Notes: a model not told the origin generated them from the sequence alone. A DNA stretch of 64,000 bases from an uncultured Gemmatimonadaceae bacterium (GCA_963740355.1 CAVUDW010000003.1:512001-576000), one strand, 5' to 3'. Numbered from the stretch's first letter, positions 10,311 through 57,948 are shown. Numbers and translations are program-made.

Positions 10311-10510
10311 TGCCCACCACAGCGCTCGAGCGTCTCGTGGATCGTCCGTATGAACGTGCACCGTGGTTGCCGCGCGCGCCGTGGTGCGCCGCCGTCGTGA
10401 AACGGACGGGCGCACCGCACCCCCGCCGCAGCCGCGACACGCTGCGGCATCCGTCGACAACTCGACGGTCGTGAAGACACCGCACCGGCGCATGCCGAAG
10501 GAGCACACGC

Positions 10511-10897: not shown

Positions 10898-10925
10898 TGC
10901 AGACCACGGTGTGCGTGAGGCATCG

Positions 10926-11396: not shown

Positions 11397-11649
11397 CGAC
11401 GACGGCACCAGCGAGGACAAAGATCGCAATGACGAGACAATGCCACACCGCCGCGATAACACAGTGGAAGGACAGCGATGCGCACCTGCATCGCGTCGAG
11501 CGCCTGCGTACCCGCGCGATGGCCACGAGGGCTGTCTGTCCGGGAACGAGCGAGATGCCGGAACATCGGCATGATCTGAGAGACAACGCACGAATCGCCG
11601 ACGCGAGCGTCGGGACAGTCGTCACCACACCACGCATGGAGTTCATCAC

Positions 11650-12387
11650 ATGACCGCTCGAATCCCGTCCGGCCCCGCACTCTCACGCGTGGATGACACG
11701 CAGCAGGCCGTCAATCGCGGCGTCGCCGCACTGATCGAGGAAACGCAAAGCGCATTGCGTACCGTCGCCGGCAGCCTGCTCGCGAGTCTGCTCGAGTATC
11801 CCTACTTTGGGCTGGCGCACGGGCACGCCACCCTGCGCGAGACGATCAGTCACGAGTGGCGCGGAGGACCGGCCGTCACTGGCATCCACCTGTGGCTCCG
11901 CCGCGTGGTCGCACACACGCTCGCGGTGGCGGATGCCGTCACGGCGGCCGACCGGGATACTGCAGTCCTCGCGGCAATCTGTCGCGAATTCGGCGCGTGT
12001 GCCGTGACACCGCCCGATGGCATCACGGTCTTCTCGCTCGCCGATCATGGGCCGCTGCCTGGCGCTGCGGCCTTCATGACGCGCCTGCAGGAGGCGATGA
12101 ATCGGCACGATCACATCGCCGCGGCCGAGGATGACGAGCTCACCAGGGTCATCGCGACGGTGCGCGAGCTCGAGCTGCATCCGTGGGTTCCTGTCACGTC
12201 GGTGGCCGCTGCCGTCGCAGTGGCTGGCCGCGCGAGTGCTGCGGCGCTGATCGGCGTGGCGGAGTCCACGGGGCCGCTCCGGCTGTCACGTCGTCACTCG
12301 CTCGCGAAGATCTCGTTCGGCCCACTCGGTGCAGTCGACACGCCTGCGCTGCAGACGGCTGGCGCGTCAGAGGCGCTGCCGTTCTGA
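11650..12387 (+). CDS. Degenerate HD-domain-like protein
   Basis: GGAG RBS; HTLAVA...DRDTAVLAAICREFG aligns with HSLQVA...DMDAVRLGGLLHDLG of 50392-51549, with HD replaced by RE. Confidence 0.55.
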   Translation: MTARIPSGPALSRVDDTQQAVNRGVAALIEETQSALRTVAGSLLASLLEYPYFGLAHGHATLRETISHEWRGGPAVTGIHLWLRRVVAHTLAVADAVTAADRDTAVLAAICREFGACAVTPPDGITVFSLADHGPLPGAAAFMTRLQEAMNRHDHIAAAEDDELTRVIATVRELELHPWVPVTSVAAAVAVAGRASAAALIGVAESTGPLRLSRRHSLAKISFGPLGAVDTPALQTAGASEALPF

Positions 12388-12467
12388 GGGTCGCGCGCAC
12401 CGTCCGGTCGCCACGACGGACGGTCCGTACCCCCACGGAGCGCGGCTCATCCTGCGATGTCGGCGTG

Positions 12468-12746
12468 ATGTACACGCCGAAGATCTCTCACACAGGAGCG
12501 CGCTTGGCAGACGAAATGAGTTCCGCAGGATCGCGTGCAGGTCGCGTGGTGCCGCAGGTACGGTACGCTCGGCTCTGGAAGTCGCTGGTGTCGGGAAGCG
12601 TCCCGCCCCGCTCGGCGGACGTGGCGCAATGGTATCGTGCCGCGCAGCACGTGCTTGGTCCGGTGCTGCACGAAGCGCAGGTCGAGCGCATCGTCGAAAA
12701 TGGCGACGGTCGGCCCATGTGGGACGAAACGCAAACCGCCGCCTAG
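12468..12746 (+). CDS. Small hypothetical protein
   Basis: Co-oriented last ORF of the backbone module with protein-like composition; start uncertain. Confidence 0.35.
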   Translation: MYTPKISHTGARLADEMSSAGSRAGRVVPQVRYARLWKSLVSGSVPPRSADVAQWYRAAQHVLGPVLHEAQVERIVENGDGRPMWDETQTAA

Positions 12747-12905
12747 TACGACGGCGTTGAAAGTGCGCAGCTCCCCGATGTCAGGGCCACGAGGGCTCTC
12801 GTCGTCGGCCGGCTGCGCGCTTTGCGTTGCGCCGGATTCGCAGCGCGCGCTGACATGCTCTCGCGCTTCGGCTGGGTGGGCCCTTTCCCACGCGCGACCG
12901 AAGGG

Positions 12906-13026
12906 TACACCTCGTAGTCACTCCGAGCTCAAGGAGCGGATCATCGCGGTGGCTCCCTCAACGACGGCAAGCGACCTCACAATCGGCGTGCTGGCGGCCC
13001 GGACCGGCTGCACGGTGGACGCGATC
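12906..13026 (+). pseudogene. Decayed MerR operator plus 5' fragment of a CadR-like gene
   Basis: Nucleotide copy of 39031-39151 (DLTIGVLAARTGCT) with start ATG changed to ATC and a mutated dyad. Confidence 0.8.
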
Positions 13027-13122
13027 ACCTCGACTCGCTGGTTTGCACGGGGCGTCACGCGGAATACGTGCGGCATTCGCTGGAATCATCGTCGCGCAAA
13101 GGTGCGGGTCAGGTAAACAGCT

Positions 13123-13578
13123 TTATCGGTCGAGATCACGGATCAGCGCCTTCATCTCGCCGATCTCGCGCACCTGTGCCTCGATGATTCCATCGGCCAG
13201 CTTCCGCACGCGAGGATCGGAAATGTGCGCGCGCTCGCTCGTCAGGATAGCAATCGAGTGATGTGGGATCATCGCCCTCATCCACGACACGTCGCCCACG
13301 GTCGCCTGGCTGCGCACAAGCCAGAGCGCGACGGCGAACACCACGGCGCTGCCGCCGAAGATCCAGGCGTTCAGTCGGCTATCGTTGTACATGCCGCGCA
13401 TGAACACCAGCATGATCACCGCCATCGTCGCGCCCATCACCAGGGCCATCCAGGCGCGCGTCTGGCTGAAGAACACATGATCCAGCGCATAGGTATTCAG
13501 GTACATCAAACCGAACATGACCACGGTTGAGACTGCGATCATGCCAGCGAAGCGCCGGTACGGACTAGTGGAATTCAC
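13123..13578 (-). CDS. DUF305 domain membrane protein
   Basis: WMRAMIPHHSIAI and AQVREIGEM motifs; downstream of copB. Confidence 0.85.
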   Translation of the reverse strand: MNSTSPYRRFAGMIAVSTVVMFGLMYLNTYALDHVFFSQTRAWMALVMGATMAVIMLVFMRGMYNDSRLNAWIFGGSAVVFAVALWLVRSQATVGDVSWMRAMIPHHSIAILTSERAHISDPRVRKLADGIIEAQVREIGEMKALIRDLDR

Positions 13579-13761
13579 TCTTTACGTCCTGTGCATTGTT
13601 GAGTGACGATTGCGCGACGCTGTTACCCGGTGGCCGCTGTTCGAGTGTGTCTGGTGGCAAGCCTTGCGCCAGTCGCAGACGCATCCGCCCGGACGGCTTC
13701 CGGGTGCCGCGCAGCTACCACACCAGGCGAGCGCCACTGTCGAGAAACCTGCGGTGCCACG

Positions 13762-15868
13762 CTACAACTTCGCGCGCCGCAGGAGTTGCGCGTTCGCGGC
13801 CACGATGATCGTGGAGAGTGACATCAGACCCAGCCGCCATCGCCGGCGTCAGCGTGAGTCCCCACCGCGCGAATACCCCAGCCGCAAGCGGAATCGCGAC
13901 GACGTTGTATCCTGCGGCCCACCACAGATTCTGTACCATCTTCCGATAGCTGGCGCGTGAGAGCGTGATGATACGCGCCACATCGCGTGGATCACTGCGC
14001 ACCAGCACCACGTCGCCCGCCTCGACCGCGACGTCGGTGCCGGCACCAATCGCGACACCGACGTCAGCCGTTACCAGCGCTGGCGCATCGTTCACGCCGT
14101 CGCCCACCATCGCGACGCGCGTTCCGGCCTTCTGCAGCGCTTCGATCTTCGACGCCTTGTCCTGTGGCAGCACCTGCGACAACACGGTCGTGATGCCGAG
14201 TGTCTTCGCGACGGCGTCGGCCACCGCCTTCGAGTCGCCAGTCATCATCACCACGTCGATGCCCGCCTTCTGCAGCGCCATCACCGCGGCAGCCGACTCA
14301 GGCCGGACCGCGTCCGCGACCGCGAAGGCCGCGCGCGCCTGACCACCTTCGACCAGGTAGATCACGCCCTGGCCCTTCGCGGCTGCATCACGCTCGAACG
14401 CCGAGAGGGCCTGAGACGGCTGGACCTTCAGCTGTGCCAGCAGGTTCGGCCCGCCGACCGAGAGTGCACGACCTTCCACAGTCGCGCTGACACCGTGCCC
14501 AGGGATGGCCATGAAGGTCGTCGCCACCGGCACGTCGAGCTTTGCATCAACCGCACTCTGGACGATGGCACGTGCGACGGGGTGCTCGGCGTCGCGCTCG
14601 ACGCTTGCGGCGAGGCGCAGCGCATCTGCCTCAGTCATGCCATCGAGCACCTGCGTCGCGACCACGCGGTGCGCGCCGAGCGTGAGCGTGCCGGTCTTGT
14701 CGAAGACTACGGTCGTGAGATTCCTCGCGTCCTCGAATCCGACGCGATCACGCACCAACAGCCCATTCCGCGCGCCGAGCGTGGTCGAGATCGCAAGCAC
14801 CAGCGGCACGGCGAGGCCGAGGGCGTGCGGGCACGCGATCACGAGCACCGAGACCAATCGCTCCACCGCCATGGCCGGCCCGGCACCGAGGCTGATCCAG
14901 ACCACGAACGTCATTAGGCCGCATCCCAGCGCGACCCAGGTCAACCAGAATGCGGCGCGATCCGCCAGTGCCTGTGCGCGCGACTTCGAGTTCTGCGCCT
15001 GCTCCACCAGCCGCATGATCCCCGCGAGCGCGGTGCGGGTCCCGGTCCCAGTGACCTCGATTCGCAGCGACCCGGAGCCGTTGACCGTGCCCGCCAGCAC
15101 CTTCGCCCCGACCGTCTTCCCGACCGGGGCCGATTCGCCCGTCACGAGTGCCTCGTTCACGGCGCTTTCGCCGGCGCGCACCACGCCATCGGCAGGAATC
15201 GCTGCCCCAGGGCGGACCAGCAGCATGTCCGCATCGAGCAGCACCGTGACCGGCACATCCTCGAGCGTCTCGGAGGGGCCCTGCCCCGTCACGCGCGTCG
15301 CCATGTCGGGCAGCAATTTCGCGAGCTCGCCCAACGCGCCCTGCGCCTGATTGATCGAGCGCATTTCGAGCCAGTGGCCCAACAGCATGATCGTCACGAG
15401 GGATGCCAACTCTTCCCATAGCGGCATACCGGGAAATCCGAACAGCACTGCCGCGCTGAATGCGAAGGCCACACTGATCGCGAGGGCGATCAAGACCATC
15501 ATCCCAGGCAGGCGGTCGCGGACTTCCTGTAGCGCGCCTCGGAGAAACGGAAGGCCCCCATAGGCGAACACCGCCGAGCCGAACAGCGCCGGGACGTACG
15601 TGACGCCGGGGAACGCCGGCGCCGTGTAGTGCAGCGCGCTCTGCAGCATGTGGCCCCACACCAGCGTCGGAATCGTCAGCACGAGCGAGATCCAGAACTT
15701 GTCCCGGAACATCGCCACGGAGTGACCGGCATGCCGACTGTGCCCGCTCGCCATGGCGTCGTGGCCACCGTGCGGCTCGGGCGTTCCGCTGGGTGGCGAG
15801 TGAGACATGCCATGCCCCATCGGCGTGTCGGCGGGCATTGAATGCCCGTGCATCGCATGTTCGTCCAT
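13762..15868 (-). CDS. copB: Copper-translocating P1B-3 ATPase (CopB-type); +1 frameshift near 13830 in the last TM helix
   Basis: His-rich N-terminus, TGES, CPH, DKTGT, GDGVND, YNVVAIPLA; GGAGGAG RBS; the C-terminus LMSLSTIIVAANAQLLR lies in a shifted frame ending TAG at 13762. Confidence 0.88.
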
Positions 15869-15951
15869 CGATCTCCTCCGCGGCGGGCGCGCCGGTCTGT
15901 GGACGCGCCGGTTCAGCGCTTCCTCGGCACGCTCTTGAGAAGTGCCGGGCA

Positions 15952-26386: not shown

Positions 26387-26857
26387 ATGGCATCGTCCGC
26401 GGAGCGCGACGCGCTGCGAATCGGCGAGCTGGCCGAGCGCACCGGCACCAACACGCCCACCATCCGCTACTACGAGGAGGTCGGCCTGCTGCCGCATGCC
26501 GCGCGTCAGGCCGGCGGCCAGCGCCGGTATGGCACGCCGGACGTCGAACGGCTGCAGTTCATCCGGCGCTGTCGCGAGTTCGGCTTCCCGCTCGAACAGG
26601 TGCGCGAGCTCGTGAGCCTCTTCGGTGATTCGCGGCGCAACTGCACCGATGCACGCGACATCGCGCAGGCGCATCTCACGCAGGTGCGCGCGAAGATGAC
26701 GGAGCTGCGCGCGCTCGAACGCGACATCGCGGCGTTCGTGCACCGGTGTGACGCCGAATGTGTCGGCGGGCCGGGGCCTGACTGTGTGCCCCTCGTGCAG
26801 TTGGCCGCGCAGGGCAGGACGCACCGCACGCGACCGACCCGGCGCGTGCACGCATGA
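26387..26857 (+). CDS. MerR family metal-responsive regulator
   Basis: IGELA...TIRYYE HTH; RNCTD plus [13 protein letters not shown]. Confidence 0.92.
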
Positions 26858-27192
26858 CCCGCACGCTGCTGGTGTACGTCGTCGCAGCACTGGCGGAGAT
26901 CGGCGGCTGCTTTTGCTTCTGGATCTGGCTGCGTCAGGGCCGCAGCGCCTGGAGCGCCGTCGCGGGTGTCTTGTTGCTGACACTCTTCGCATGGGCGCTC
27001 ACGCGCGTGGGCAGCGCGTTCGCCGGCCGCGCGTACGCCGCGTATGGCGGCGTCTACATCATCACGTCGCTCGCGTGGCTGTGGAGCGTGGAGGGCGTGC
27101 GGCCGGATCGTACCGACGTCCTCGGCGCCGTGCTCTGTCTCGTCGGCTCCGGAATGATCCTGCTCGGCCGCGGCGCGTCGAGCGGGCCCTGA
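26854..27192 (+). CDS. ynfA: YnfA family (SMR-like) membrane protein
   Basis: [34 protein letters not shown]. Confidence 0.9.
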
Positions 27193-37721: not shown

Positions 37722-37890
37722 GGGGACATCGCGCAGGCGCATCTGACGAAGATCCGCGCGAAGATGGCTGAACTGCGTGCGCTCGAACGCGATATCGTGG
37801 CGTTGGTGGACAGGTGTGACGCGGCATGCCTCGGCGGGCCGGGCCCGGACTGCGTGCCCTCGGTGCAGCATGTCGCGCAGGGCTGGGCGC
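37722..37890 (+). pseudogene. 3' remnant of a MerR regulator (copy of 26655-26820)
   Basis: [24 protein letters not shown]...CLGGPGPDC with no HTH. Confidence 0.8.
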
Positions 37891-37934
37891 AACGCGACCG
37901 AGCGCCGTGGCGTGGCGTGGCGTGGCGTGCACGC

Positions 37935-38286
37935 ATGCACCCACACGCTGCTGGGGTACGTCGTGGCCGCCGTGGCGGAGATCGGCGGCCGCTTCTGCTT
38001 CTGCTTCTGCTTCTGGATCTGGCTAGGCTTGCGCCGTAGTGCATGGATCGCGGTCGCCGGCGTGCTATTGCTGGCGCTCTTCGCATGGGCGCTCACCCGC
38101 GTCGACAGCGCCTTCGCCGGTCGCGCCTACGCCGCGTACGGCGGGGTCTACATCATCACGTCGCTGGCGTGGCTGTGGACCGTGGAGGGCGTTCGGCCGG
38201 ATCGCGCCGACGTGATTGGCGCCCTGCTCCGTCTGGTCGGCTCCGGCGTGATCCCGCTCGGACGTGCCGCACTGAGCGCTCCGTAG
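37935..38286 (+). pseudogene. ynfA: ynfA pseudogene (second copy)
   Basis: +1 insertion right after the ATG, (GCTTCT)4 expansion at 37991-38014, non-conservative substitutions. Confidence 0.8.
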
Positions 38287-38981: not shown

Positions 38982-39026
38982 ACGTCCTCCGCTTTGCAAA
39001 GGTGAGCCCTTCCCAGCGATGAGTGA

Positions 39027-39057
39027 ACGCTACACCTTGTAGTCACTACAAGGTCAA
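39027..39057 (-). promoter_or_regulatory. CadR/PbrR-type MerR promoter TTGACC-N19-TAGCGT
   Basis: Perfect 10-1-10 dyad ACCTTGTAGT-C-ACTACAAGGT at 39034-39054. Confidence 0.9.
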
Positions 39058-39067
39058 GGAGCAGATC

Positions 39068-39508
39068 ATGGCGACGGCACCCACGACGACGGCCGGCGAC
39101 CTCACCATCGGCGTGCTGGCGGCCCGGACGGGCTGCACGGCGGAAGCGATCCGGTACTACGAGCGGGAGGGCGTGTTGCCGCGCCCCGTTCGTGCCGGCT
39201 CAGGACGGTATCGTCGCTACACCGATGCTGACGTGCAGCGCCTGTCGTTCCTGCGCCGCGCGCGCGAGCTGGGCTTCAGCCTCGACGAGGTGCGCGCACT
39301 GCTCGCCTTCAGCGACGGCGACCCGCGCCGCTCGTGTGCCGATGTGGATTCGCTCGCCCGCGCCCATCTGGCGCAGGTTGATGGCAAGCTCTCGCAGCTG
39401 ACCGCCCTGCGCGGTGCACTCGCCGGCATCATCGACCGGTGCAGCGGCGGGCTGGCGGTGGCGGACTGCCGCATCCTGGATGCACTCGCCGGGGGCGTGC
39501 ACGACTAG
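39068..39508 (+). CDS. MerR family regulator, divalent-metal (CadR/PbrR/ZntR-like) type
   Basis: AAGGAG RBS, IRYYE, RSCADV and CSGGLAVADCRIL (three-Cys pattern). Confidence 0.9.
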   Translation: MATAPTTTAGDLTIGVLAARTGCTAEAIRYYEREGVLPRPVRAGSGRYRRYTDADVQRLSFLRRARELGFSLDEVRALLAFSDGDPRRSCADVDSLARAHLAQVDGKLSQLTALRGALAGIIDRCSGGLAVADCRILDALAGGVHD

Positions 39509-47173: not shown

Positions 47174-48568
47174 TTAGGGCTGGCTCGGCACCATCGGTGC
47201 CTGCGCTGGGCTCGACGGTCCACTGCCGTTGCCGGATAGGAGGTCCGCCAGTGCATCGGCGGCGTCGAGCAGCGCGTGCACGCGGTCGATCTCCGCGCGG
47301 GCGAGCGTGCGCTCGAAATCGATGAAGTCCAGCAGCGTGATGCCGCCGCTGCGGAACGAGGCGAGTGCGCTCTCGCGCTCCTCGCGTGCGCCCTGCAGCA
47401 GTGCGGCGTCGAACACTGAGAGGCGTTCGCGCGCCGCGTCGAGACGCTCGCGCGCCACCAGCAGTCGCGTGCGTGCGGCGCTGGTGACGGCCCGTCGGGA
47501 CTCTTCCGCGGACGCCACACTTTGCGCGTCAGCCTGCGCGACGAGGGCGTTCGGCCGGGACGACGTGAACGGCAGCGTCGTCGTGAATCCGAGGCTGGGT
47601 CCGAACGCCGGCCCGTTGTTCGCCTGACCGATGCGTTGCACGCCGGCGTAGGCGGTGACTTGGGCCCGGCGCTGTGCGATGCCGAGCGCCTGCTCGGCGC
47701 GTGCCTGCCGGACCGCAGCATCCGCCGCTTCGACGTCCCGCGACGCCACGAGGATCGAATCGAGACTCACGCGCATCATGATCAGGTCGTGCCACATGGC
47801 AATCGGCCCGCCTGCACCTGCGGTGGTAGACGGCTGCGCGAGCGAATCGAGCAGCGCACCGGCCTGCACGCCAGCGGCCCCCAGCAGCCCCACGAGTGCG
47901 GCGCGTCCGGCCCGAATTTCCGATAGCGCGGCGGCACGCTCCGTCTGCACGCGGAGCCGCTCCGTGCGCACGCGGAGCACGTCCACGTAGCGCGCGGCGC
48001 CGACGGCAAAGCGACTGCGGACATTCTCGTCCGCACCACTCAACAGCTGCTCTTCTGCCGCCAACCGGTCTGCGATGGCGCGCCACGCACCCGCGCGGAC
48101 CGTTTCGCGCAGCACGAGGGCATCCACTTCGCGCTCAGCCGCGCGCACCTCCGTCTCGGCCATCGCGACGCTCGCCGCGGCGACGTCGCGTGTCGCACCG
48201 TTGCGCCGTGCCGCGAAGAGTTCGCGACCGAATTCGAGGCGCAAGTTGCCCTGGGTCGGGTCGCCGTTCGGGGCTTCCGATAGGCCGGCGGTGAGCGTGA
48301 CAGGGCCCACGAACCCCGCGGCGGCGGCGCGCGACCGCGCGGCATCGCGTCGCGCACGCGCGGCGAGCACCGCCGGGCTGTTGGCCCGCGCGAGACGTTG
48401 CACGGCGGCAAGCTGCCGAATCGCATTCGTACTGTCGCCCATCGCCGCTGCGGAGACAGAACGGTCGACGGCGATGGCGCCGGTCAGGGTGGCCGCAACG
48501 AATCGCTGCCCTATGGCAAGGCGAGGCGCGCTACACAACAACAGCAGGAATAGGGACGCGTGCCGCAC
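47174..48568 (-). CDS. czcC: CzcC-like outer membrane factor (second)
   Basis: Signal peptide, OEP-like repeats, first structural gene of the operon. Confidence 0.78.
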   Translation of the reverse strand: MRHASLFLLLLCSAPRLAIGQRFVAATLTGAIAVDRSVSAAAMGDSTNAIRQLAAVQRLARANSPAVLAARARRDAARSRAAAAGFVGPVTLTAGLSEAPNGDPTQGNLRLEFGRELFAARRNGATRDVAAASVAMAETEVRAAEREVDALVLRETVRAGAWRAIADRLAAEEQLLSGADENVRSRFAVGAARYVDVLRVRTERLRVQTERAAALSEIRAGRAALVGLLGAAGVQAGALLDSLAQPSTTAGAGGPIAMWHDLIMMRVSLDSILVASRDVEAADAAVRQARAEQALGIAQRRAQVTAYAGVQRIGQANNGPAFGPSLGFTTTLPFTSSRPNALVAQADAQSVASAEESRRAVTSAARTRLLVARERLDAARERLSVFDAALLQGAREERESALASFRSGGITLLDFIDFERTLARAEIDRVHALLDAADALADLLSGNGSGPSSPAQAPMVPSQP

Positions 48569-48802
48569 ATAGATGGCGGCCGCCCCGAGACGCGCTCTGG
48601 CGCGCGGCGTGACAGTCTGGCACGGAGTATCTCAGCGGCGCGCAGCGCCGGCCGACGGTGTGTCAGCGGAAGCGCGTGCGCGGGATTGTCTGGTGGACCA
48701 TCCCGCGGTCGTGATCGACGAGCGGGTGGCCGTGGGTGCCTGCGATCAGCGCGAGACGTCAGCGCGTGCGCGCCGCGGGCGTGGCCGCGGTGGCGCTGCG
48801 CG

Positions 48803-49241
48803 TCAGGCGCTGCGCGAGAAGACTGGCGGCCGCAATGGCAACGCGCGATCCGCGCTGGCGGGGGCCTGCACATCCGACCACGACAGTCCGCGCGGTGCGC
48901 TGACGAGTGCCACCGTCAGCGTCGGCACCGTACTGAGCGTCACCACGTGCGCGTGCGTGCAATGGCACACGTGGAGGTCGTGCGACGACGTCGGGTGCGT
49001 ACCGCAATCGACGATGGGGCGTGCTGCGACGGCTGATGGCGCGTCGACGGCCAAGGGGCGCGACACACTGCGCGATCTCCGACGACGTGGCGACCACCCC
49101 ACCCGGCGCCGGCGCATCGCCGTCGTGTGTGTCAGCGATCAGCGACTCGAACGACGAGATGCTGAAGACCACCATCAGCATGGCGGCGAGGCACCGCTGC
49201 AGGAGGATCCGCGACGCGCGAGGCCTGCGACGCAGCGCCAT
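48803..49241 (-). CDS. Secreted His/Cys leader protein ending LPLRPPVFSRSA; apparent frameshift near 49070
   Basis: Signal plus ADTHDGD in one frame, HDLHVCHCTHAH and RPP tail in another; lies between the MerR promoter and czcC. Confidence 0.6.
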
Positions 49242-49318
49242 GGCCCGTGCGCACGCCGCTTGGCGTGACGGGGCGACAGGCTGGCGGGGTGATCGCGTGG
49301 GCGGCGGGCATGGTAACC

Positions 49319-49349
49319 AGTATAAACCCTGAAGTGACTGCAAGGTCAA
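49319..49349 (-). promoter_or_regulatory. CadR/PbrR-type MerR promoter TTGACC-N19-TATACT
   Basis: 19-bp spacer with imperfect dyad ACCTTGCAGTCACTTCAGGGT, similar to 39034-39054. Confidence 0.88.
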
Positions 49350-49351
49350 CG

Positions 49352-49585
49352 GCTCGTATGTGGCGCACTCGTCGGCATCGACGCATTTGCCACGCGCTCG
49401 GCCTGCATTTGACCGGCGTCGACGCGTTCGCGCGAAGGCTGCCCCCGCCTGACAACGCCGCGCCGTACGTCGGGACACGCGGGCTGGTGCACTACGTGAC
49501 GCAGCGGATGACCGCAGCCGTTGCCGTGGCGATGGTCGAGCACCGCGCCACGAATGATCTCGCGGAACTGTCGGAGCACGCGTGA
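49352..49585 (+). pseudogene. C-terminal remnant of a ClpX-like ATPase (paralog of 9267-10310)
   Basis: LGLHLTGVDAF...PPPDNAAPYVGTRGLVHYVTQR versus LGVTVTGIETF...PAPDNSRDYIGLRGLLHFVTQR. Confidence 0.8.
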
Positions 49586-49740
49586 CCGCGCGCGCCGGGT
49601 GGCTTCACCGCGCACCGTGGCTGCTCACCGTGGTCGATGACTCGCCGGCCCCCGCACCGTGCCTCGCAGCCTCCGTCACGCCGTCGAATGACGGCACTGC
49701 TGCACTCTCGCACACCCGGCACTGGCCGGAGGAGCTACAG

Positions 49741-50127
49741 ATGGCTTTCACGCGCTGTTACCCCATGACGACCGACGAGCGGTATGTCAGGCTCGCCAAG
49801 AACGCGCTGTCGAACGAACCGGAACTGGGGCTGCCGTCGATGACGCGCTTCATGGAGTCGTTCCGACCGCGCGTCGCGCGCGTCGTTGCACCGCTGCACG
49901 CTGGCATGCGCCGGCCGATCCTCACGCAGGAGGCGTATGCCGAGCACGCCCTCGCATCTCTGGCGTCGCAGCTCGACGCCTGTCCGGCGTGCACGGACGA
50001 TGCCCTGCACGTGTGGGTGTCGTCGGAGACCACGCGCGCGGTGCTCGACCTGCATCACGCGCTGCGCCGTGCGCTGCGTACGCGTCGGCGTCAGCGCATC
50101 ACCGCGCCGTCTGCGCGAGCGGCATAG
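49741..50127 (+). CDS. Sigma-70 region-2-like stand-alone protein (paralog of 10511-10897); an in-frame upstream start at 49582 is possible
   Basis: GGAGGAG RBS; GLPSMTRF...DDALHVWVSSETTRAVLDL; same length as its paralog (128 aa). Confidence 0.65.
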   Translation: MAFTRCYPMTTDERYVRLAKNALSNEPELGLPSMTRFMESFRPRVARVVAPLHAGMRRPILTQEAYAEHALASLASQLDACPACTDDALHVWVSSETTRAVLDLHHALRRALRTRRRQRITAPSARAA

Positions 50128-50391
50128 CCTCGCACCTGCGCGGCAATGCTGCACACGATGCGGCACGCCACGCATAGCAAGGAGAAGGCTCGCAGGGACC
50201 GCCAGCCGGTGCCTGCGCAGCCGATCCGATTTGTGCGCCGGGATGGTCGCGGTCACCATCTGCGCCGAGCCCGCGTGAATCGACGTGCCGCGCGCGGCGC
50301 GCGTCAGCTGCCCCCGCAGTGAAGTCCTCACCCTCAGTCGTCGGGCATCACGCCGATGTCATGACGCTCCACATCACATTCGAGGTTCTCC

Positions 50392-51549
50392 ATGGATCAC
50401 ACGCAGACGCCAGCACTCGAGCAGCCGACGACCCGCTTCCCGTTCAACACCGCACCGACGGAGGGTGGCCACGAGTCGGGCGCCGCCGTGCTCGTCGAGC
50501 GCGACGACAAGGTCACGCGTGCTGGGAAGCCGTATGCGCGGCTCGGGTTTCGCAACAACACGGGATCGGCGACGGTCAATGTCTGGGACAAGCAGTTGCC
50601 CGAGATCGGCGGGATCGGCGTCGGATCGCCGGTGCGCATCGCGCTGACCGGTGGCGCTGGCCAGGACGGGAGCATCGAGTGGAAGTTCACGGCGATCCAG
50701 TCCCTGCCCCCGAACCACGCCGTCAGCCGTGAAGCGATGCCGCAATGCCCCGTCTCGCGGACGGACCTGATCGCGCGGACGACGCGGCTGCTCGACGCCG
50801 TGTCCGATGAGGGGCGGGACCTGTTCAGTCGCGTGATGCGGACACCGGTGCGAGGCGCCGACGGTGTTCTCGCACCATTGAAGCCCGCGTTCGCGCAGGC
50901 CCCCGCGGCACTGGGGCATCATCACGCGCACCTCGGCGGTTTGTGGTGGCACAGCCTCCAAGTCGCAGAAGGCGCCGAAGCCGTGGCGCTGGCGTACCGC
51001 GCGAGCGGTGATGCGCCCGACCTCGACATGGATGCCGTGCGACTCGGTGGGCTGCTGCACGACCTCGGGAAGGTCCTGGAGTACGGGTGGGCCGGCGTGA
51101 TCGCGATGGCGCCGCTGTCCGGTTCGATGTCCCACATGGGCCATGGTCTGCGGCTGATGACCGAGGCACTCACGCGGGCAGAGGTGGTCGAGAATTGGCT
51201 CCCGACATCGCGTCAGCGGCAGCTCGCGGAACACGTGCAGCACATCATCGCGAGCCACCATATGCAGCAGCGTTGGGGTGCGATTTCCGAGCCGGCCAGC
51301 CGCGAGGCCTGGTGCGTGCAGTCGGCCGACATGCTCTCCAGTCGCATTCAGCCATTAACTGACGCCTTCGCGTCGATCACCGACCGCGGTGATCGCCTGG
51401 TGCAGGTGCAGGACGGCTGGAAGAAGAAGTACGTGTTCGCCGCACCCATGCCGACGGCCGTTGGCGAGACAACGATCCCTCAAGCGACACACCACGACGA
51501 CGCCGCACTCGTCACGCTCACACTCGATCCTCAGACCGAGGAGTCCTGA
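50392..51549 (+). CDS. YhaM/CBF1-like OB-fold + HD-domain nuclease
   Basis: TRAGKPY...TGS...VWD OB fold; APAA..HHH...GGL..HSL, LLHDLGK, GH, SHH, ADMLS. Confidence 0.85.
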   Translation: MDHTQTPALEQPTTRFPFNTAPTEGGHESGAAVLVERDDKVTRAGKPYARLGFRNNTGSATVNVWDKQLPEIGGIGVGSPVRIALTGGAGQDGSIEWKFTAIQSLPPNHAVSREAMPQCPVSRTDLIARTTRLLDAVSDEGRDLFSRVMRTPVRGADGVLAPLKPAFAQAPAALGHHHAHLGGLWWHSLQVAEGAEAVALAYRASGDAPDLDMDAVRLGGLLHDLGKVLEYGWAGVIAMAPLSGSMSHMGHGLRLMTEALTRAEVVENWLPTSRQRQLAEHVQHIIASHHMQQRWGAISEPASREAWCVQSADMLSSRIQPLTDAFASITDRGDRLVQVQDGWKKKYVFAAPMPTAVGETTIPQATHHDDAALVTLTLDPQTEES

Positions 51550-51550
51550 C

Positions 51551-51844
51551 ATGGTGGAGCGCGTTCATCCAGCGACACCGTCTCGCACCGCGGCGCGCCA
51601 GATCGCGATCACCACGCACGCACATGCGAGCTACTTACACAGCGCGCTCATCGCGACGGAGCGCATGTTCGGCCGAGACCGTGACCCCGATTTCGACCGC
51701 TGGGTGCGCATGGCGCGGGTGACGCTCTTGGAACTGATCCCCGAAGAAAAGGCGCGCACGCTGCTGCGGGTGACCGAGAACCTGCTGTCGCGACTGAACG
51801 CGTCGCGAGAGGCCACGCCCGTCCACGACAATTGCGGTCGATGA
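51551..51844 (+). CDS. Small hypothetical protein
   Basis: GAGGAG RBS, starts just after the HD gene stop, resembles 10926-11396. Confidence 0.6.
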   Translation: MVERVHPATPSRTAARQIAITTHAHASYLHSALIATERMFGRDRDPDFDRWVRMARVTLLELIPEEKARTLLRVTENLLSRLNASREATPVHDNCGR

Positions 51845-52161
51845 AGACCATCGACGCGGCGCAACGCAGTGATGATCCACGAGACGGCGCCACTCACTGA
51901 AGTGTCGCTCCCGTGGAACCGAACTCGCAGTACGTCGAACCGCGTGGGCCTCACAGGGAACCCGACCCATCCCGCTCCCCCGGATCCACGGCCATGAGGG
52001 CTGTCGGAGATGGCCCACGTGGATGGGCGCGCGGTTTCCACACTGCCACCACAGTCGGCGGCGTGGTACGCAGCGCACCGACATCACGGCCACGAGGGCT
52101 GCGACTTCGGCGCGCAGCGACCACCGCGTCTCGACGTGGCGAGGACCGACACGACTACCGT

Positions 52162-52806
52162 CTACTGCCTCGGCGGCACGCTCCACACCCCAGCCGCATC
52201 GACGCACCACTTCCACTTCGTCAGCACCAAGGTAAGGGCCTCGTAAAAGTCGACGCTCGACGTGTGCCCGACCTCGCACCACTCCGTGCAATATTCCGGA
52301 AGATGCTCCGCGATGGCAGCGACGGTCCACGTCGTGTGCTTGCCGAGCGTGATCACATCCGCCTCGTCGGCCACGCGCCTCGCGAGATGCGCTCGAACGG
52401 CGTCGGTGTCGAGGCGCCCAGTGTCGCGCTGGAAATTGTCCCAGCGGTCGAAGTCGTCGTCCGGCATGTTGGTGTCGTACTTGATGTCCGACACGCAGAT
52501 CCGCTGCGCTATAGGGGCAGCCGCCAGCGTCACAGTCCGTGCGCGCTGCGTCCGCTTCCGGTCGCGCTCTCGCTCCCGCTTCGCCAGCTGGGTCGCGCTC
52601 GGTGCGCCCGTCGGGGCGAGCGAGGCGAGATACTCCTCTAGCGTACCGGCGGCACGCTGCCGGTCGGCTATGTCCTTCGCGACCGTGTTCCGTGATATCT
52701 TGAGTGTTCGCGCGATGCTGGCCTTTTCTTCGTCACGTTCATGGGCCTCACAGACCGCGCGAATCCGCGCGATCCGGTCCTCGTCGCACTGAATCGGTCG
52801 TGCCAT
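52162..52806 (-). CDS. HTH-containing protein, candidate element regulator
   Basis: KASIARTLKISRNTVAKDI helix-turn-helix; AAGGA RBS. Confidence 0.65.
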   Translation of the reverse strand: MARPIQCDEDRIARIRAVCEAHERDEEKASIARTLKISRNTVAKDIADRQRAAGTLEEYLASLAPTGAPSATQLAKRERERDRKRTQRARTVTLAAAPIAQRICVSDIKYDTNMPDDDFDRWDNFQRDTGRLDTDAVRAHLARRVADEADVITLGKHTTWTVAAIAEHLPEYCTEWCEVGHTSSVDFYEALTLVLTKWKWCVDAAGVWSVPPRQ

Positions 52807-52909
52807 GCGTGTCGTCCTTGTGCGGGATGAGGCGCGGTGAGCCCGGAACTCCATCTGCTCAATTGTCCCATTGGGCGTCGGAAGCGAGGGCCGCGGTAGG
52901 CTGACGGAC

Positions 52910-53752
52910 ATGCCACCGTCGACATGCGAACCGACAGCTACTGAACAGGCGCCTTCGGAATTTATTCGGTTCCGCCGCGCCGTCAACGAGGTCTTTGAGG
53001 ATTATCCTCCAGAGACCGTCGGACCAGGCGTTGCCCGACTCCTCCTCGGCGTGCAGCGACGCGTGCTCGACGCCGCGTTGGCGCACCTGTCGCCGTCTGG
53101 CGAGTTCTCAAACCAAGTGCCGGTCGCTCAGCGGGGTGACCCGGCAGCGTCGTCCGCGGAGACAACCGAGCGGCATGGCGATGCTGTCGCTGCATCATCA
53201 GCGCCTCCCGTCGTCGACGTACGCGCGCCGGACACGCGCGTCCGCCCTGAGGTAGTTGCCATCGTCCCATACGGCGGCGCACCGGACGAGCCGCTGATGG
53301 AGCCGACGCCGAATCCGGGGGGCTTGGACCACGTCCCCGAGCAGGTGGTCGCAGACGAAGAGCCCGTCTGGGCGTTCCCGGCGCCCCCGACCCCGACGGC
53401 CGACGCTGTCGATCCCGTCAGGTCAGCGCTCGGCGATGCGGCGACCGCCGCACTCCAGCGCCAGCGCGCTGCGGCCCTCGTTGCCTCGGCAACAGGGCCG
53501 ATGATGCCTGCGGTCTCGCCAGGAGCCGCACCATGCCCCGCCAACGCCCCGTTCGCATCGACCACGTCACGCCCCGTGGCATCGCCGTCGTCATCGAAGA
53601 TCGACCCGGCCGACCGTCGGCCCAACTCCGGTGGTGGGACCCCGCCACGCAGACCACCCAACGGCTGGCCATGGGCATCGCAACGCGCGATGCCCATGGA
53701 CGCCGCTCCCCGCAACACCTCACCCTCCTCCGCGAGCTCGCAGACCGCATGA
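52910..53752 (+). CDS. Hypothetical protein with a helical N-terminus and Pro/Ala-rich tail; 3' end overlaps the integrase and is doubtful
   Basis: Protein-like first ~60 aa; TAGGCT 7 nt before the ATG; divergent from the HTH gene. Confidence 0.4.
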   Translation: MPPSTCEPTATEQAPSEFIRFRRAVNEVFEDYPPETVGPGVARLLLGVQRRVLDAALAHLSPSGEFSNQVPVAQRGDPAASSAETTERHGDAVAASSAPPVVDVRAPDTRVRPEVVAIVPYGGAPDEPLMEPTPNPGGLDHVPEQVVADEEPVWAFPAPPTPTADAVDPVRSALGDAATAALQRQRAAALVASATGPMMPAVSPGAAPCPANAPFASTTSRPVASPSSSKIDPADRRPNSGGGTPPRRPPNGWPWASQRAMPMDAAPRNTSPSSASSQTA

Positions 53753-55413
53753 TTGAAGAACACACTACCACAACCGCCGCGCACACCGCAGCGCCAGCAG
53801 CAACCGAACCGGCGACGATTCGCCACGCGTTCGACACTGCGCTGGACCCGCGTACAGGGAAGGCGCGTGCCGCAGGCTCCGAGCAGAACGCGGACTGGAA
53901 GCGCGCGTCCCGTGAGGCGTTGGCCGCCCTTGGCGCCGAACGGCGGATCCGCGATCTCAGCGGATACGATGCGAAGTTGCTTGTGCAGTCGTGCCTCCTG
54001 CGGCAGGCCGCCGGGCAGTCGCTAGAGGTCTGGACCGAGCACCTCGATGCGGTGCGTGCGAGACGCCCGACCGGTACCCTTCTGACGCTGGACGACCTCT
54101 TGGCGGTGCACGCCGCCCTGTGTCCAGTCGCAGCCACGAATGCGGCGCTTGGCGGCTTGCGCACCTGCGAACTGACGATGCACAACGTCCGGGCGATGCT
54201 GCGATACGTCCGCGCGTACGCACCCGGCACCTTCGCCGGCGTGGAGCAATTCCAACTCGTCGAGCAGTTGGATCTCCTCCTCGCGTCCGTCGCCACAGAA
54301 ATCAACGCGACCGTCAACACGAAGGTCAATCGGCAGCGTCCTGCGCTTGAACACGCACGCCGACTAATGCTCCGCGTCATGGACCCGAGGCATCGCACGC
54401 TCACGATCCTGACGGTGGCCTGTGGACGTCCCGGTGCATACCGGGTGCGCCGCTGTCATATCGAACGCGAGGTCGGCAAGGCGCGGTACCGCATCCGCGA
54501 AACGAAGAGCGACGGATCGCTGGCACTCGGCTACAAGTATGTCGCCGGTCACGCGGCGGCATTCCTCGAGGCGGAGCTGGCGACCACCTTCCGCGACTTC
54601 GAGGCACGCTGGCTCGAATCGCGCGAGGACTATGCGCTCCTGCACGGGCATGACTGGGATGGCACGGCGTTGGTCCCTGACGCGAGCGCCGGCTTGCTCT
54701 ACATCGACCCGCGGTTCCGCCTCCTGCTGATCCTCGGCGTGGAAGGCCGCCTCGAGCAGCAGGGCCGCTTGAGCTATCGCATGCTGCAGCGTGTCGAGGG
54801 TGGGATGCTGGCGCTGCGGAGCCCGGGTCGGGACAAAAAGCGCGCGTCGGACCTCGTGCTGTGTGACGCGCAGGTCGAGGCCATCGCCTTCGAGTGCACC
54901 GTGGGCTTTCTCGCGCCGCTGATGAAGGCGTACGACGCGACGCAGGCGCGGGTGGCACGGGGGCTGACGGCGCCACCTAGCGAGATCGATGTGCACGACT
55001 TCCCTCTCGCGCCCGCAGGCCAACTGGCAATGGGGCAGGCGCGCGCCGTCGCCGTCTCGCTCCAGCCGTCCGATGACCGCACGCTGTGGGACTGGAACAA
55101 GCCGCTGCTCGACGCGCTCGGCATCAAGGGCGAGGGCACGTCGCTGCGCGCGTGGCGGCGCCTGTGCGTCGACCTGTACAAGCAGTGGCGCCTCGATCCG
55201 GATGTGCATCGCCTCGTGACCGGCCACGGCGCGGTGTCCGTCGCTGGCGACCTGCAGCGCGATGACCAGGAGGACACCTTGCAGACCATCTACTTCAATC
55301 AGGCCGCACTGCACCTGGCCCAGGAGGCGCAGGCCGTGATGCAGCACATGCGGACCACGTTTCCGGCATCGGGAGCGCCATACCGCCGAATCGTGACCGA
55401 CACACTGCAGTAG
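53533..55413 (+). CDS. Divergent tyrosine recombinase/integrase
   Basis: AGGAG RBS; N-terminal arm-binding-like region (LRWWDP); LLLILGVEGRLEQ, DKKR, SLRAWRR, VTGH, TIY in canonical order; ends ~130 nt from the tRNA 3' end. Confidence 0.72.
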   Translation: MPRQRPVRIDHVTPRGIAVVIEDRPGRPSAQLRWWDPATQTTQRLAMGIATRDAHGRRSPQHLTLLRELADRMIEEHTTTTAAHTAAPAATEPATIRHAFDTALDPRTGKARAAGSEQNADWKRASREALAALGAERRIRDLSGYDAKLLVQSCLLRQAAGQSLEVWTEHLDAVRARRPTGTLLTLDDLLAVHAALCPVAATNAALGGLRTCELTMHNVRAMLRYVRAYAPGTFAGVEQFQLVEQLDLLLASVATEINATVNTKVNRQRPALEHARRLMLRVMDPRHRTLTILTVACGRPGAYRVRRCHIEREVGKARYRIRETKSDGSLALGYKYVAGHAAAFLEAELATTFRDFEARWLESREDYALLHGHDWDGTALVPDASAGLLYIDPRFRLLLILGVEGRLEQQGRLSYRMLQRVEGGMLALRSPGRDKKRASDLVLCDAQVEAIAFECTVGFLAPLMKAYDATQARVARGLTAPPSEIDVHDFPLAPAGQLAMGQARAVAVSLQPSDDRTLWDWNKPLLDALGIKGEGTSLRAWRRLCVDLYKQWRLDPDVHRLVTGHGAVSVAGDLQRDDQEDTLQTIYFNQAALHLAQEAQAVMQHMRTTFPASGAPYRRIVTDTLQ

Positions 55414-55477
55414 TTCGCCTCGAACTCGCGACCCGATGAGGACAGAATCGGGGACAAAACGACACCAGAAACGGCAC

Positions 55478-55510
55478 CGACCCCCTGAATCGCAAAGATT
55501 CAGGGGGTCG
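55478..55510. terminator. 14-bp perfect hairpin between the convergent integrase and tRNA
   Basis: CGACCCCCTGAATC-GCAAA-GATTCAGGGGGTCG; no clear U-tract. Confidence 0.6.
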
Positions 55511-55540
55511 TAACTCATTATGCTACAATGCTTTTCACTA

Positions 55541-55614
55541 TCGGGACGACAGGATTCGAACCTGCGACCCCCTGAACCCCATTCAGGTGCGCTACCGGGC
55601 TGCGCTACGTCCCG
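55541..55614 (-). tRNA. tRNA-Pro(GGG), CCA not encoded
   Basis: CGGGACGTAGCGCAGCCCGGTAGCGCACCTGAATGGGGTTCAGGGGGTCGCAGGTTCGAATCCTGTCGTCCCGA folds as a cloverleaf with anticodon GGG. Confidence 0.97.
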
Positions 55615-55683
55615 TCAGAACTCCAGCCCAGACCGGCACCGGCGTCCAACAGTCCCCAAAGCTAACCCCGCCACGCCCGCCGT

Positions 55684-57948
55684 TCAATCAGCCAGCGGCA
55701 ATCCCTCTGGGTGCCCATGCGCGCCGGCAAGGAACTCCGCCACCTGCCCGGCGGCACGGACCGGCGCCAGCGCCGTCTTCGCGATCCCCGAAAACACCCG
55801 CGTGATGTCGTGATCGACACGACCCGGCTCCGACCACACCGCGCCACTCGCCACCGTGACGTACGCCGAAAACGTGTGGTGCCCGGTGCCAGGCCGCTCG
55901 CCGATGATGTGCACGATCGCACACCGGTCCCGCCGACCCTCGAACAACGTCTCGCCCACGCGATAGCCGGCCCGCACTCGGCCTGAATGGATCACCAGCT
56001 GCTGCGGCGCGACCTGCCAGCCGGAATCGGCCAACTCATCGCGCAGCGTGTCGACGAATGGCGCGAGCTGATCCGGCTCGATGATCGCAAGCGCGTTCAA
56101 CCCGTCCGACACCAATATCTGCAGATCATACTTGCCCTCGTGCAACGCGCGCATGGTCGCGACCGTCTGCACCGAGCGCGCCGACAGGTGCTCCCCGGTC
56201 ACGGGATGCAGGATGTAATCCTCCCGCGACGTGGATTGCGTCTCGAGCACGACCGCGCGCGACTGTCGCTCGACGAACTCCGACGGCAGTGTCGCCCAGA
56301 ACGCGAGCTTGGCATCGTCGTAGACCGCGCGAATCTGCTGATCGAGCGCGGGCGACAGGTCGCCATTCCGCTCGCCGCACCCTTCAGCGATGAAGATGCC
56401 ACGTGCCCGCACCTCCGCCATCTGCCGCGCCGCCTCGGCACGCAGGTCGGCATCGGGACGAGTGTCACCTCTCCGCCGCTGATACGCGATGAACACGGCA
56501 CCTGAATCACCAAAGTTCGGTCCCGCGCGACCCGCAGCATCCAGCACACCGAGCGATTCGAAAAATACCTGCATCGGAGGATTGACCGCCTTTCCAAACT
56601 GCTCGCGTAGCCGAACGTGATCCTGAAAGCCCGTCGTGAGATACCCGAGCATGGGATCGACCTTCGTCGGCAACGCCATCAGGTACGCCGGACACGCGGG
56701 AAGCACCTGTTCGAGACACCAATCGAGGTCATCGAGCGAGATGTCCATGTGCAGCGTGGCACAGACGTCGAGGCCGATGGTGAGGCCATGCAGCTTGCCC
56801 ATCACCAGGTCCTCGAGACAGCAGCGCACGAGCTGCTCCCGCGTGCGAAATACTTCCGGCCCGATGAATCCGGCGACGTCGTTGACGATCACCCACGGCT
56901 GCGCCTCGCGACCGGCACGTTGCCTCGCCTCGGACGCCCATTCACCGAGCAGCCTCGCAAAGCCGTACTTCCGCGACTCGTGAATCACCATGTCCACACC
57001 ATTCGCGTGGCCGTTCGTGCAGTCCGCCCCCTGCCCCGTCTCGAAATACAGGCTGAATGGGCCGTCACGCGTCGCAGCGTGCGCAATCATGCCGTCAACC
57101 GTGACATCGAACGTCTGGTTCGCGACATCACTCCCCGCGATACTCTGGAACCAGAGCGCCGTGCTACCGGGGTGAGTACGCTCGACTTCCGCCTGCACAT
57201 CGATGTGCGCCAGCACACAGTGCGGAATGGCGTCCTCCAGATCGAACGTGCGGATCACATCCTGCAGCGTGCGCTCGACAACCGCCACCGACCGCGGGTC
57301 ACTCGAGACGGGATTGGTGCCGAGTAGGACGTCACCCACACCGTACGACCAGCCATCGAACACCTGCCACCGGATATCGTCCGGATGGTCGGTCGGCGAA
57401 TTCGGCTGCAGGCGCGCGCCGAGGAAACCCGCAGCCCCGATGGAACTTCCGGGCAACGCATGCGAAAACTTTGCACTGACGCGAATCAACTCGTCGTTCG
57501 TGAGCAGCTTGACGACGCAACCAATCACTTCGCTCGAGAGGTGTCGCGCAATGCCGTTCAGCGACTCGGCGCTTCCACGGAGCATCATCGTTGCGAGCTC
57601 ACCAAGTGTCGTGTCAGCAGACATCTCCCGCGCCACGGGATCGATGCGCGCGCTAAGCACGTGCGACAGCTGGTCGTCGAACAACGGATGCTCGTCGATG
57701 GCACCGAGTGTGGTGGCGCGCAACAAGGCCCTCGCCACTCCTCGACTTGTGTCATCACTTGCCCCCACACCAACGGCGACGTCGCCCTCCTTGTGTTCGT
57801 TTGCCGCGCCGAGCAACTGACCGAACCGGCGCCTGTCATACGCACCGTGAGTCCGGATCAGATAGGCGAAGATGTCCTCGCCAGGCAGCGCCTCGGCCAA
57901 CGCCGTCGTGGGCGGCGGGGCAGACGTCGCAGACAGAATCTCGTCCAT
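55684..57948 (-). CDS. eutB: Ethanolamine ammonia-lyase, fused large (EutB) and small (EutC) subunits
   Basis: ARLQPN, GTNP, YFETGQG, GFIGPE, DPMLGY, then EutC motifs SDGLNA, IGERPG, SAYVT in one frame. Confidence 0.9.

Follow-up and report, generated by a model that had tools for sequence, protein, structure and literature searches.

A genus-restricted gene module in two diverged copies within a tandem island at tRNA-Pro(GGG) of an uncultured Gemmatimonadaceae bacterium

What kind of element ends at the tRNA-Pro(GGG) gene of this uncultured bacterium, and how is the gene set beside that end related to a similar set on the same strand, 39 kb away? The window, meaning the whole stretch of 64,000 nucleotides that was analysed (G000:C3:512001-576000), belongs to a genome of 5.45 Mb and 65% G+C whose database relatives carry the name Gemmatimonadaceae. 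These are common soil bacteria, and to our knowledge their mobile elements are almost unstudied. By Pfam the window is mostly metal-resistance cargo: three czcCBA-type resistance-nodulation-division (RND) operons, two P-type ATPases, a multicopper oxidase, CopC and MerR regulators. The first of the two gene sets (copy A) lies at 8.5-12.7 kb and the second (copy B, 49325-55413) runs up to an integrase. A first-pass annotation took them for two related elements of a minimal integrative family that were stacked in tandem at tRNA-Pro and filled with metal cargo. Our analysis leads to a modified answer: copy B probably forms the recombinase-proximal (right) end of a 100.6-kb island in tRNA-Pro(GGG), and the module represented by both copies is probably the core of a genus-restricted element.

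The features at the right end of the island are as follows.

55541-55614, minus strand: tRNA-Pro(GGG), the target gene, at which the island ends within the window (ARAGORN; Rfam 62.6 bits)
55540-55582, plus strand: 43-bp attachment (att) core, the 3' part of tRNA-Pro (blastn-short against the genome, three-site alignment)
55449-55461, plus strand: arm-type motif CGGGGACAAAACG, ~80 nt from the att core
53533-55413, plus strand: tyrosine recombinase (integrase) of 626 amino acids (aa), adjoining tRNA-Pro(GGG), recognised by profile, catalytic residues and fold

Within the window the 3' end of tRNA-Pro is not repeated. A blastn-short search of the whole genome, of the kind the first-pass annotation had proposed for the upstream contig, found two exact copies of the 43-bp core in direct orientation at C3:429730-429772 (att1) and C3:466874-466916 (att2), 82 and 45 kb before the window start. 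An integrase thus stands beside a tRNA 3' end that is directly repeated at the far borders, beyond the window. The spacing gives tandem units of 37,101 bp and 100,623 bp in an array of 137.9 kb. The neighbourhoods of att1 and att2 have 178 bp in common at 85% identity, and therefore appear to be homologous left arms at the start of both units. The 12-mer arm motif GGGGACAAAACG has four copies in the 5.45-Mb genome, every one beside an att core: to the right of both distal cores, to the left of att2 and to the left of tRNA-Pro. It is also found ~90 nt from tRNA-Pro in two relatives (L011 and L012, described below). As this anatomy suggests, the 626-aa integrase would recombine the 43-bp core in a lambda-type manner, helped by the arm sites on both sides.

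Each end of the 37-kb unit (C3:429773-466873) carries an att core and an arm motif, and neither a genome search nor a Pfam scan found an integrase in the unit. It fits the definition of a cis-mobilizable element (CIME) in tandem with an integrase-bearing unit, a label that does not extend to copy A. Directly to the left of att1, the outermost att, lies a faint C-terminal integrase stump (C3:429372-429566, 31% over 64 aa), and the array may for this reason formerly have been longer, with a further, older unit. Stacking at tRNA-Pro is thus borne out by the upstream repeats, but not in the form first proposed: because the only tRNA-end repeats lie 45 and 82 kb before the window, copies A and B are both inside one 100.6-kb att-bounded unit and are not separated by an att site.

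The integrase was correctly called in the first-pass annotation, which was established by profile and fold work, the library scans being negative for the 626-aa ORF (open reading frame) in Pfam (E 0.1), NCBIfam, PHROGs and PADLOC. A word-indexed search of 5.8 billion proteins gave 6 relatives, and a HMMER profile search of 1.84 billion representatives gave 309 at E 1e-3, 24 of them at E <=1e-30; the named members of the family are all 'hypothetical protein' of Gemmatimonadaceae. One of 28 scanned relatives matches PF00589, at 4.9e-4 and below the cut-off. A profile of 8 integrases found nothing at E 10 among PDB sequences; a 117-row profile matched the XerC-like protein 4a8e (E 1e-4) and lambda Int (5e-4) with the catalytic boxes in register. 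Residues R406, K436, R542/R543, H565 and Y587 are invariant in all 8 integrases, and in the 117-row alignment R and K are invariant and RR and Y are conserved in at least 90%. The HxxR box reads RAWR in the 626-aa protein and YGxR in the family consensus, so that Arg and Tyr, respectively, take the place of the first His.

A first full-length model from 7 close sequences had a predicted local distance difference test score (pLDDT) of 50, with an unusable C-terminal half, and an improved AlphaFold2 model of residues 265-626, built on the 117-row alignment, reached a pLDDT of 91.6 and a predicted TM-score of 0.92. The top rows of a Foldseek search with this model are all tyrosine recombinases, at E 5e-3 or worse, and comparison with VIA gave Z 13.0 to 4a8e (174 aligned residues, root-mean-square deviation 3.2), with 76 of 491 chains at Z>=8. 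From sequence profile and model together we accept 53533-55413 as a predicted tyrosine integrase of a clade missed by curated models; that the protein does not reach the curated PF00589 threshold is a limit of the sequence model and no sign that a catalytic feature is missing. The integrase turned up in 3 of 201 genomes sampled from the order, and its family in 10 of 20 genomes of the genus, there mainly as fragments, some with stop codons. Stumps of the type of integrase carried by L012 lie beside tRNA-Pro in G162 and in G190, which has two further tRNA-end repeats.

The genes of copy B that precede the integrase are these.

49325-49585, plus strand: C-terminal remnant of a ClpX/HslU-like AAA+ protein, the last ~82 of 347 codons, inside ORF 49247-49585
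49582-49740, plus strand: conserved segment of ~160 nt before the 128-aa gene, either a leader or an extension of its N-terminus, with a GTG that shares 4 nt with the AAA+ stop
49741-50127, plus strand: 128-aa protein, paralog of 10511-10897
50392-51549, plus strand: predicted intact nuclease with oligonucleotide/oligosaccharide-binding (OB) fold and HD domain, YhaM-like (Pfam, NCBIfam, PDB profile)
51551-51844, plus strand: 97-aa protein beginning 1 nt past the nuclease stop, conserved partner of the OB-HD gene
52066-52119, plus strand: 55-bp stretch homologous to 12763-12817, just past the last gene of copy A (76% over 55 nt, E 1.4e-6)
52162-52986, minus strand: 274-aa protein, weak candidate helix-turn-helix (HTH) regulator, divergent from the integrase (Pfam HTH_11 E 0.053, PHROG 1729 E 0.005)

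What the module looks like when complete can be seen in relatives of the same genus, namely four loci in three metagenome-assembled genomes (L009 = G476 C63, L010 = G421, L011 = G476 C62 and L012 = G380), to which G281 adds two further copies. The full order is a sigma-like gene, the AAA+ gene, the 128-aa gene, the OB-HD gene, an 85-aa gene, a ~95-aa gene, a 264-aa HTH gene on the opposite strand and an integrase of 636-641 aa. L009 and L012 show the part from the sigma gene to the ~95-aa gene, and L011 and L012 continue to the integrase and tRNA-Pro(GGG). Set against this template, copy B has neither the sigma gene nor the ~95-aa gene and little of the AAA+ gene; of the ~95-aa gene, 55 bp of downstream DNA is all that is left, and no trace at the protein level was found in 51500-53600. 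Copy B is 5'-truncated, since genomes of the same genus carry the full module. Along with the sigma and ~95-aa genes it has lost the first three quarters of the AAA+ gene, and czcCBA cargo now abuts it.

The C-terminal remnant at its left edge was read correctly as ClpX-like in the first-pass annotation: 49325-49570 matches residues 262-343 of the 347-aa AAA+ protein of copy A (BLASTP 48% over 58 aa, E 1e-15; tblastn 40% over 82 aa) and is 81% identical to the corresponding tail in L009, and tblastn of 48000-49700 picked up nothing of the first 261 residues. Between the czcC start and this remnant are ~750 bp of 71% G+C (48569-49324) with long ORFs on both strands, where the deletion joint lies; the ORFs match no family and do not resemble the sigma-like gene. 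The ~160-nt segment that follows is open, in frame and overlapping in copy B, L009 and L012, and has an in-frame stop in copy A (10310-10510) and L011. Differences between copy B and L009 are spread evenly over the three codon positions in this segment (7, 8 and 7), against 21, 20 and 39 in the 128-aa core; it may be a coding extension or a regulatory leader.

The nuclease also stands as first annotated, intact and with both an OB and an HD domain. It matches Pfam HD at 9e-10, NCBIfam YhaM at 5.1e-16 over residues 39-329 (below the equivalog cut-off) and, as a profile, the solved YhaM structure 9h3f at 3.1e-14; the metal-binding His and Asp residues of the HD motif are invariant in 5 of 5 OB-HD sequences, and on this basis 50392-51549 is predicted to be a YhaM-like OB-HD nuclease. 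It is 87-89% identical in L009 and L012 (89% in L012), and the host chromosome holds a separate paralog (C2:97053-97982, 26% identity). Homologs of the 97-aa protein lie immediately 3' of the OB-HD gene in L009, L010, L011 and L012; a complex prediction of the two proteins scored 0.00, the fold of the partner being uncertain. The 274-aa gene lies where the first-pass annotation placed an HTH gene, its assignment as HTH being weak, and it is unrelated to the 264-aa HTH protein at the same place in L011, L012 and G281. A promoter and terminator scan of 48500-55700 gave nothing above chance level.

Copy A keeps the front of the module and consists of the following.

8547-9164, plus strand: extracytoplasmic function (ECF)-like sigma/HTH protein, not in copy B (TIGR02937 1.7e-5, below cut-off; PHROG sigma 3.4e-7)
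9267-10310, plus strand: full-length ClpX/HslU-like AAA+ ATPase, 347 aa (Pfam, NCBIfam, PDB profile)
10511-10897, plus strand: fast-evolving 128-aa protein, with an end branch of 1.06 against a median of 0.074 in the tree
10926-12387, plus strand: alternative cassette of a small protein (conserved part 11040-11396) and then a 245-aa protein (11650-12387), in the same order twice in G281
12432-12746, plus strand: conserved protein of ~95 aa, the last gene of the module before the HTH and recombinase genes in relatives

The modules of L009, L012 and G281 begin with relatives of the sigma-like protein (45-51% identical), and the ~95-aa protein is 53-58% identical over ~105 aa in L009, L011, L012 and G281. 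The AAA+ protein, with relatives 54-67% identical, matches Pfam AAA (1.3e-5), NCBIfam ClpX (6.5e-8, far below cut-off) and the PDB chains of ClpX (1.5e-6) and HslU (2.5e-6); it has Walker A (GPTGAGKT) and Walker B (MLDEID) motifs and belongs by these features to the ClpX/HslU clade, its bit score being far below the cut-off for a true ClpX. Copy A thus has the sigma, AAA+, 128-aa and ~95-aa genes together with the other inner cassette.

When 8001-13000 was compared with 48501-55700 by tblastx and blastn, two clear colinear protein matches were obtained and scarcely more, in the shared orientation that had been noted at first. Two of the four paralog pairs first proposed are significant, namely the AAA+ tail and the 128-aa pair (10511-10897 and 49741-50127; BLASTP 48% over 88 aa, E 3e-25). 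The other two fail. The small pair (10926-11396 and 51389-51844) gave E 0.14 by BLASTP, 0.15 by hhalign and 0.37 family against family, and the 245-aa protein against the OB-HD protein gave E 1.5 by BLASTP, 0.12 by hhalign and, family against family, E 0.0098 at 4% probability. In the weak hhalign alignment to the OB-HD family the HD dyad falls on Arg-Glu, and the 245-aa protein has no recognisable HD domain and no match in Pfam, NCBIfam or PDB; a very remote, catalytically altered relationship is possible from this alignment. An atlas look-up gave it a best score of 0.84, to phage translation repressor clusters, which is below the meaningful level. The order of small and HD genes had been described as swapped between the copies. 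It is better seen as two alternative two-gene cassettes, OB-HD with its partner of 85-97 aa and the small protein with the 245-aa protein, each kept in relatives: the second is conserved twice in G281, and 2 of 401 genomes of the family have the 245-aa protein.

The 128-aa protein had been annotated as a sigma2-only paralog of equal length; the paralogy holds, and so does the equal length when an internal ATG is taken as the start. The sigma nature is not confirmed: no sigma match was found in Pfam or NCBIfam, hhalign against the sigma-like family gave E 0.27 and there is no solved relative. An atlas look-up scored 0.95 to unnamed clusters, with an HTH_16 lead at rank 20, and a reading as zinc-binding anti-sigma factor was dropped, as just the first Cys of the CxxC is invariant. 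The family has 7 matches in 5.8e9 proteins, with relatives 72-81% identical to copy B. It occurs in 9 of 401 genomes of the family, strongly in the present genome and 5 of 14 other members of the genus, and at E ~5e-4 in three genomes of other genera. In the tree, copy B groups with L009, L012 and six metagenome proteins, and copy A with the two G281 copies (support 86/84). The tree places A and B in different lineages, and by the same tree they are diverged members of one family and not a fresh duplication; the first-pass view of diverged copies of one backbone family, tied to the integrase, is upheld to this extent. The long branch of copy A is as expected for a relic under relaxed constraint.

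These data also bear on whether A and B could have arisen by duplication of one module inside the island, followed by divergence and differential loss. They are the only two copies in the 5.45-Mb genome, on the same strand and each preceded by a minus-strand czcCBA operon, as such a duplication would give. However, A and B are 48% identical at the protein level, where B reaches 74-81% identity with its counterparts in other genomes and A falls with the G281 copies in the tree; their cassettes are unlike and have separate relatives; and the two czcA proteins are 36% identical, with no match between the czcC proteins at E 1e-5. We regard duplication as highly improbable.

The module also occurs with other recombinases. 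The integrase of L012 is only 30% identical to the 626-aa protein and its nuclease is 89% identical to that of copy B, which makes the elements mosaics. L010 has the module with a 527-aa integrase. In G281, one locus (L027, G281:C23:120001-140000, positions 8117-15896) has an A-type module and then the 264-aa HTH gene and a 794-aa integrase, with tRNA-Gln(CTG) 124 bp further on, and another (L029, G281:C21:60001-80000, positions 8619-15402) has an A-type module with a 722-aa large serine recombinase. The 794-aa integrase matches PF00589 at a borderline 5.6e-6 and is unrelated to the 626-aa family by hhalign. The module thus occurs with at least four different recombinases, and its upstream neighbours vary (a major facilitator superfamily transporter in L012, czcC in the window and G281). 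It is accessory and genus-restricted. With its genes accessory and present in few genomes, long-term core status is ruled against, and the objection that these might be stable core genes of relatives, to which the first-pass reading would have been open, is removed.

Cargo and recombinase vary but the genes remain together at the recombinase end, and for this reason the module would be the backbone of the element family, made up of an ECF-like sigma gene, the AAA+ gene, the 128-aa gene, a two-gene cassette, the ~95-aa gene, an HTH gene and a recombinase. Its predicted ATPase, nuclease and sigma factor suggest regulated expression and nucleic-acid processing, and we infer that it may be the regulatory and DNA-processing core of the element, with expression through the sigma factor, an unfoldase-type ATPase and a nuclease. 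The same linkage can be explained differently, if the module is a mobile cargo cassette (for example a defence or stress system of AAA+ ATPase and HD nuclease) that favours the variable spot next to integrases, where defence systems of prophages and islands also tend to lie. An ATPase with a nuclease is a frequent defence make-up, and the module stands beside at least four unrelated recombinases with interchangeable inner cassettes, in an island that also has TIR/SEFIR, DUF3800, UvrD-like helicase and type I restriction-modification genes; the HD domain gives weak matches to Cas3 and Cas10 HD models (PADLOC, 5.6e-6 to 4.7e-3). PADLOC models match none of the other 10 scanned module proteins, however, a sigma factor is unusual in defence systems, and order and place directly before the HTH and recombinase genes are constant in every complete locus whereas the upstream side varies. 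We consider the cargo reading unlikely.

A bolder reading, which we hold only tentatively, is that the module is the recombinase-independent core of an undescribed class of integrative element of Gemmatimonadaceae that exchanges its integration modules. Its range would then take in a large serine recombinase and at least three unrelated tyrosine integrases, which use tRNA-Pro(GGG) or tRNA-Gln(CTG). Since no known conjugation, mobilisation or virion genes are carried, it would move, or be moved, by an unrecognised mechanism, with the sigma factor as its switch and element DNA processed by the OB-HD nuclease or by the catalytically altered protein that replaces it.

The origin of copy A bears on the reading as a tRNA-Pro island with a module core. 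Under that reading the island would have grown as related elements accreted and then lost their inner ends, and copy A would be what is left of an element from a different lineage, with the front of the module preserved and the HTH gene, recombinase and att gone; most simply it would be the stump of a further element merged into the present 100.6-kb unit. Copy A was not necessarily ever a tRNA-Pro element, because its nearest relative lies at tRNA-Gln(CTG) with the unrelated 794-aa integrase. It may instead derive from an element at another site, for example tRNA-Gln, and have come in with a larger metal-resistance segment (czcCBA and module) through transposition or homologous recombination, which we see as possible though doubtful. 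The czcC gene of G281 C23 is 41% identical and in the same divergent position before its A-type module, att and arm sites were not found near A, and metal-gene fragments and repeats flank it (12882-13026 is 81% like 39007-39151, and 2-244 is like 13493-13830). Against such a route, there is no transposase or insertion sequence beside A among the ORFs scanned, and no tRNA-Gln fragment in the window.

Several results weigh against the island reading that we prefer. Genome and window searches found no HTH gene, recombinase, att core or arm motif in the neighbourhood of copy A, nor any att core or arm motif between A and B, so that its origin as a tRNA-Pro element has no support from att or arm sites and its closest relative targets tRNA-Gln. 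The 128-aa protein (no match in Pfam, NCBIfam, PHROG, PADLOC or PDB) and the 97-aa, 245-aa and ~95-aa proteins match no family. The G+C content here (0.664-0.666) is close to that of the genome (0.650). Left-flank DNA of the island has no match in G162, G190 or G102, right-flank DNA matches over the tRNA alone, nine flank proteins found no match in nine relative loci, and no empty tRNA-Pro(GGG) site was found in the relatives' loci compared. The relatives are few and of one genus, and the L and G labels denote partly the same genomes reached by two routes (identical tree rows). Transfer machinery was not found in Pfam scans of 102 ORFs of the 137.9-kb array and its flanks (13+34 in the window, 34+21 upstream in the island), a GC3-filtered set in which genes may have been missed. 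Conjugation, capsid and replication families had no match in it, in agreement with the first-pass annotation, and neither did relaxase, coupling protein or type IV secretion genes, so that the island does not qualify as an integrative and conjugative element (ICE) on this set.

Other contents of the region may be noted. To the right of tRNA-Pro(GGG), the only Rfam match in the window, are ethanolamine ammonia-lyase and permease genes (Pfam). Genes for a TIR/SEFIR protein, DUF3800, a UvrD-like helicase and the R and M subunits of a type I restriction system lie in the 100.6-kb unit at C3:483687-495562. Two probable pseudogenes lie inside the islands of the array, an RND pump broken into two ORFs (C3:454464-457060) and a phosphoketolase in three pieces (C3:506163-507689). 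Diverged repeats (74-86%) occur in the metal genes, pairing 12882-13026 with 39007-39151 (a MerR start), 2-244 with 13493-13830 (DUF305 and a P-type ATPase end) and 26657-27184 with 37725-38278 (a MerR and YnfA pair), and suggest repeated reshuffling of cargo; one of them begins ~65 bp beyond the end of the copy A homology. Elsewhere in the genome, host tRNA-Gln(CTG) (C3:1615111-1622801) has two partial 3'-end repeats 4 and 7.5 kb off, marking a second small island hot spot.

The 138-kb array at tRNA-Pro holds three RND metal-efflux operons, P-type ATPases, a copper oxidase, and restriction and TIR defence genes, and with such cargo the element family is a likely route for the spread of metal resistance in soils. 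Island-finding tools that use standard models would miss islands of this kind, as the integrase family is invisible to them, and a profile of that family, with its 309 relatives, could close the gap. The conserved module is a compact six-gene set that stays linked while recombinase and cargo change.

Among known proteins, MobH HD-domain relaxases show a weak likeness to the OB-HD protein at the first HD segment (NCBIfam MobH 1.1e-3, Pfam TraI_2 0.015). A relaxase reading was rejected, as residues 170-229 alone align (60 residues) and YhaM, at 5.1e-16 over 290 residues and both domains, is thirteen orders of magnitude better. With the YhaM/Cbf1 3'-5' exonucleases both domains align (NCBIfam 25-290/314, and 9h3f), and distant homologs share PF01336 and PF01966; the present protein differs in its 24-27% identity to such proteins, in scoring 58.6 bits against an equivalog cut-off of 460, and in being island-borne with a coupled gene of 85-97 aa. 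The AAA+ protein aligns with ClpX/HslU in the Walker A/B region and the next segment, but has 347 aa with no recognised N-terminal domain, 28-32 bits against cut-offs of 359-371, and no protease partner gene nearby. The integrase shares with lambda Int, Xer and Cre the catalytic fold (4a8e), the places of R, K, R, H and Y and likely arm sites, and differs in its length of 626 aa, in lying below all curated thresholds, in its RAWR box and in ~12% identity to solved structures.

As a whole, the array may be compared with tRNA islands and integrative mobilizable elements, which grow by tandem accretion, and with CIMEs under the ICESt1-type model, as set out in PMC5704250. Alike are the tyrosine integrase by a tRNA 3' end, the exact direct repeats of that end, the integrase-less unit with both ends in tandem, the decayed stumps and the distantly related integrases at one target. 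In this island, by contrast, no relaxase, coupling protein, type IV secretion system or oriT-like feature was found; it has conserved genes of unknown families and resides in Gemmatimonadaceae, for which the top-ranked titles and abstract openings of a literature search describe no island family. The island is thus of a known kind, formed by accretion at a tRNA gene; what sets it apart is an undescribed backbone together with an integrase family that standard models do not see.

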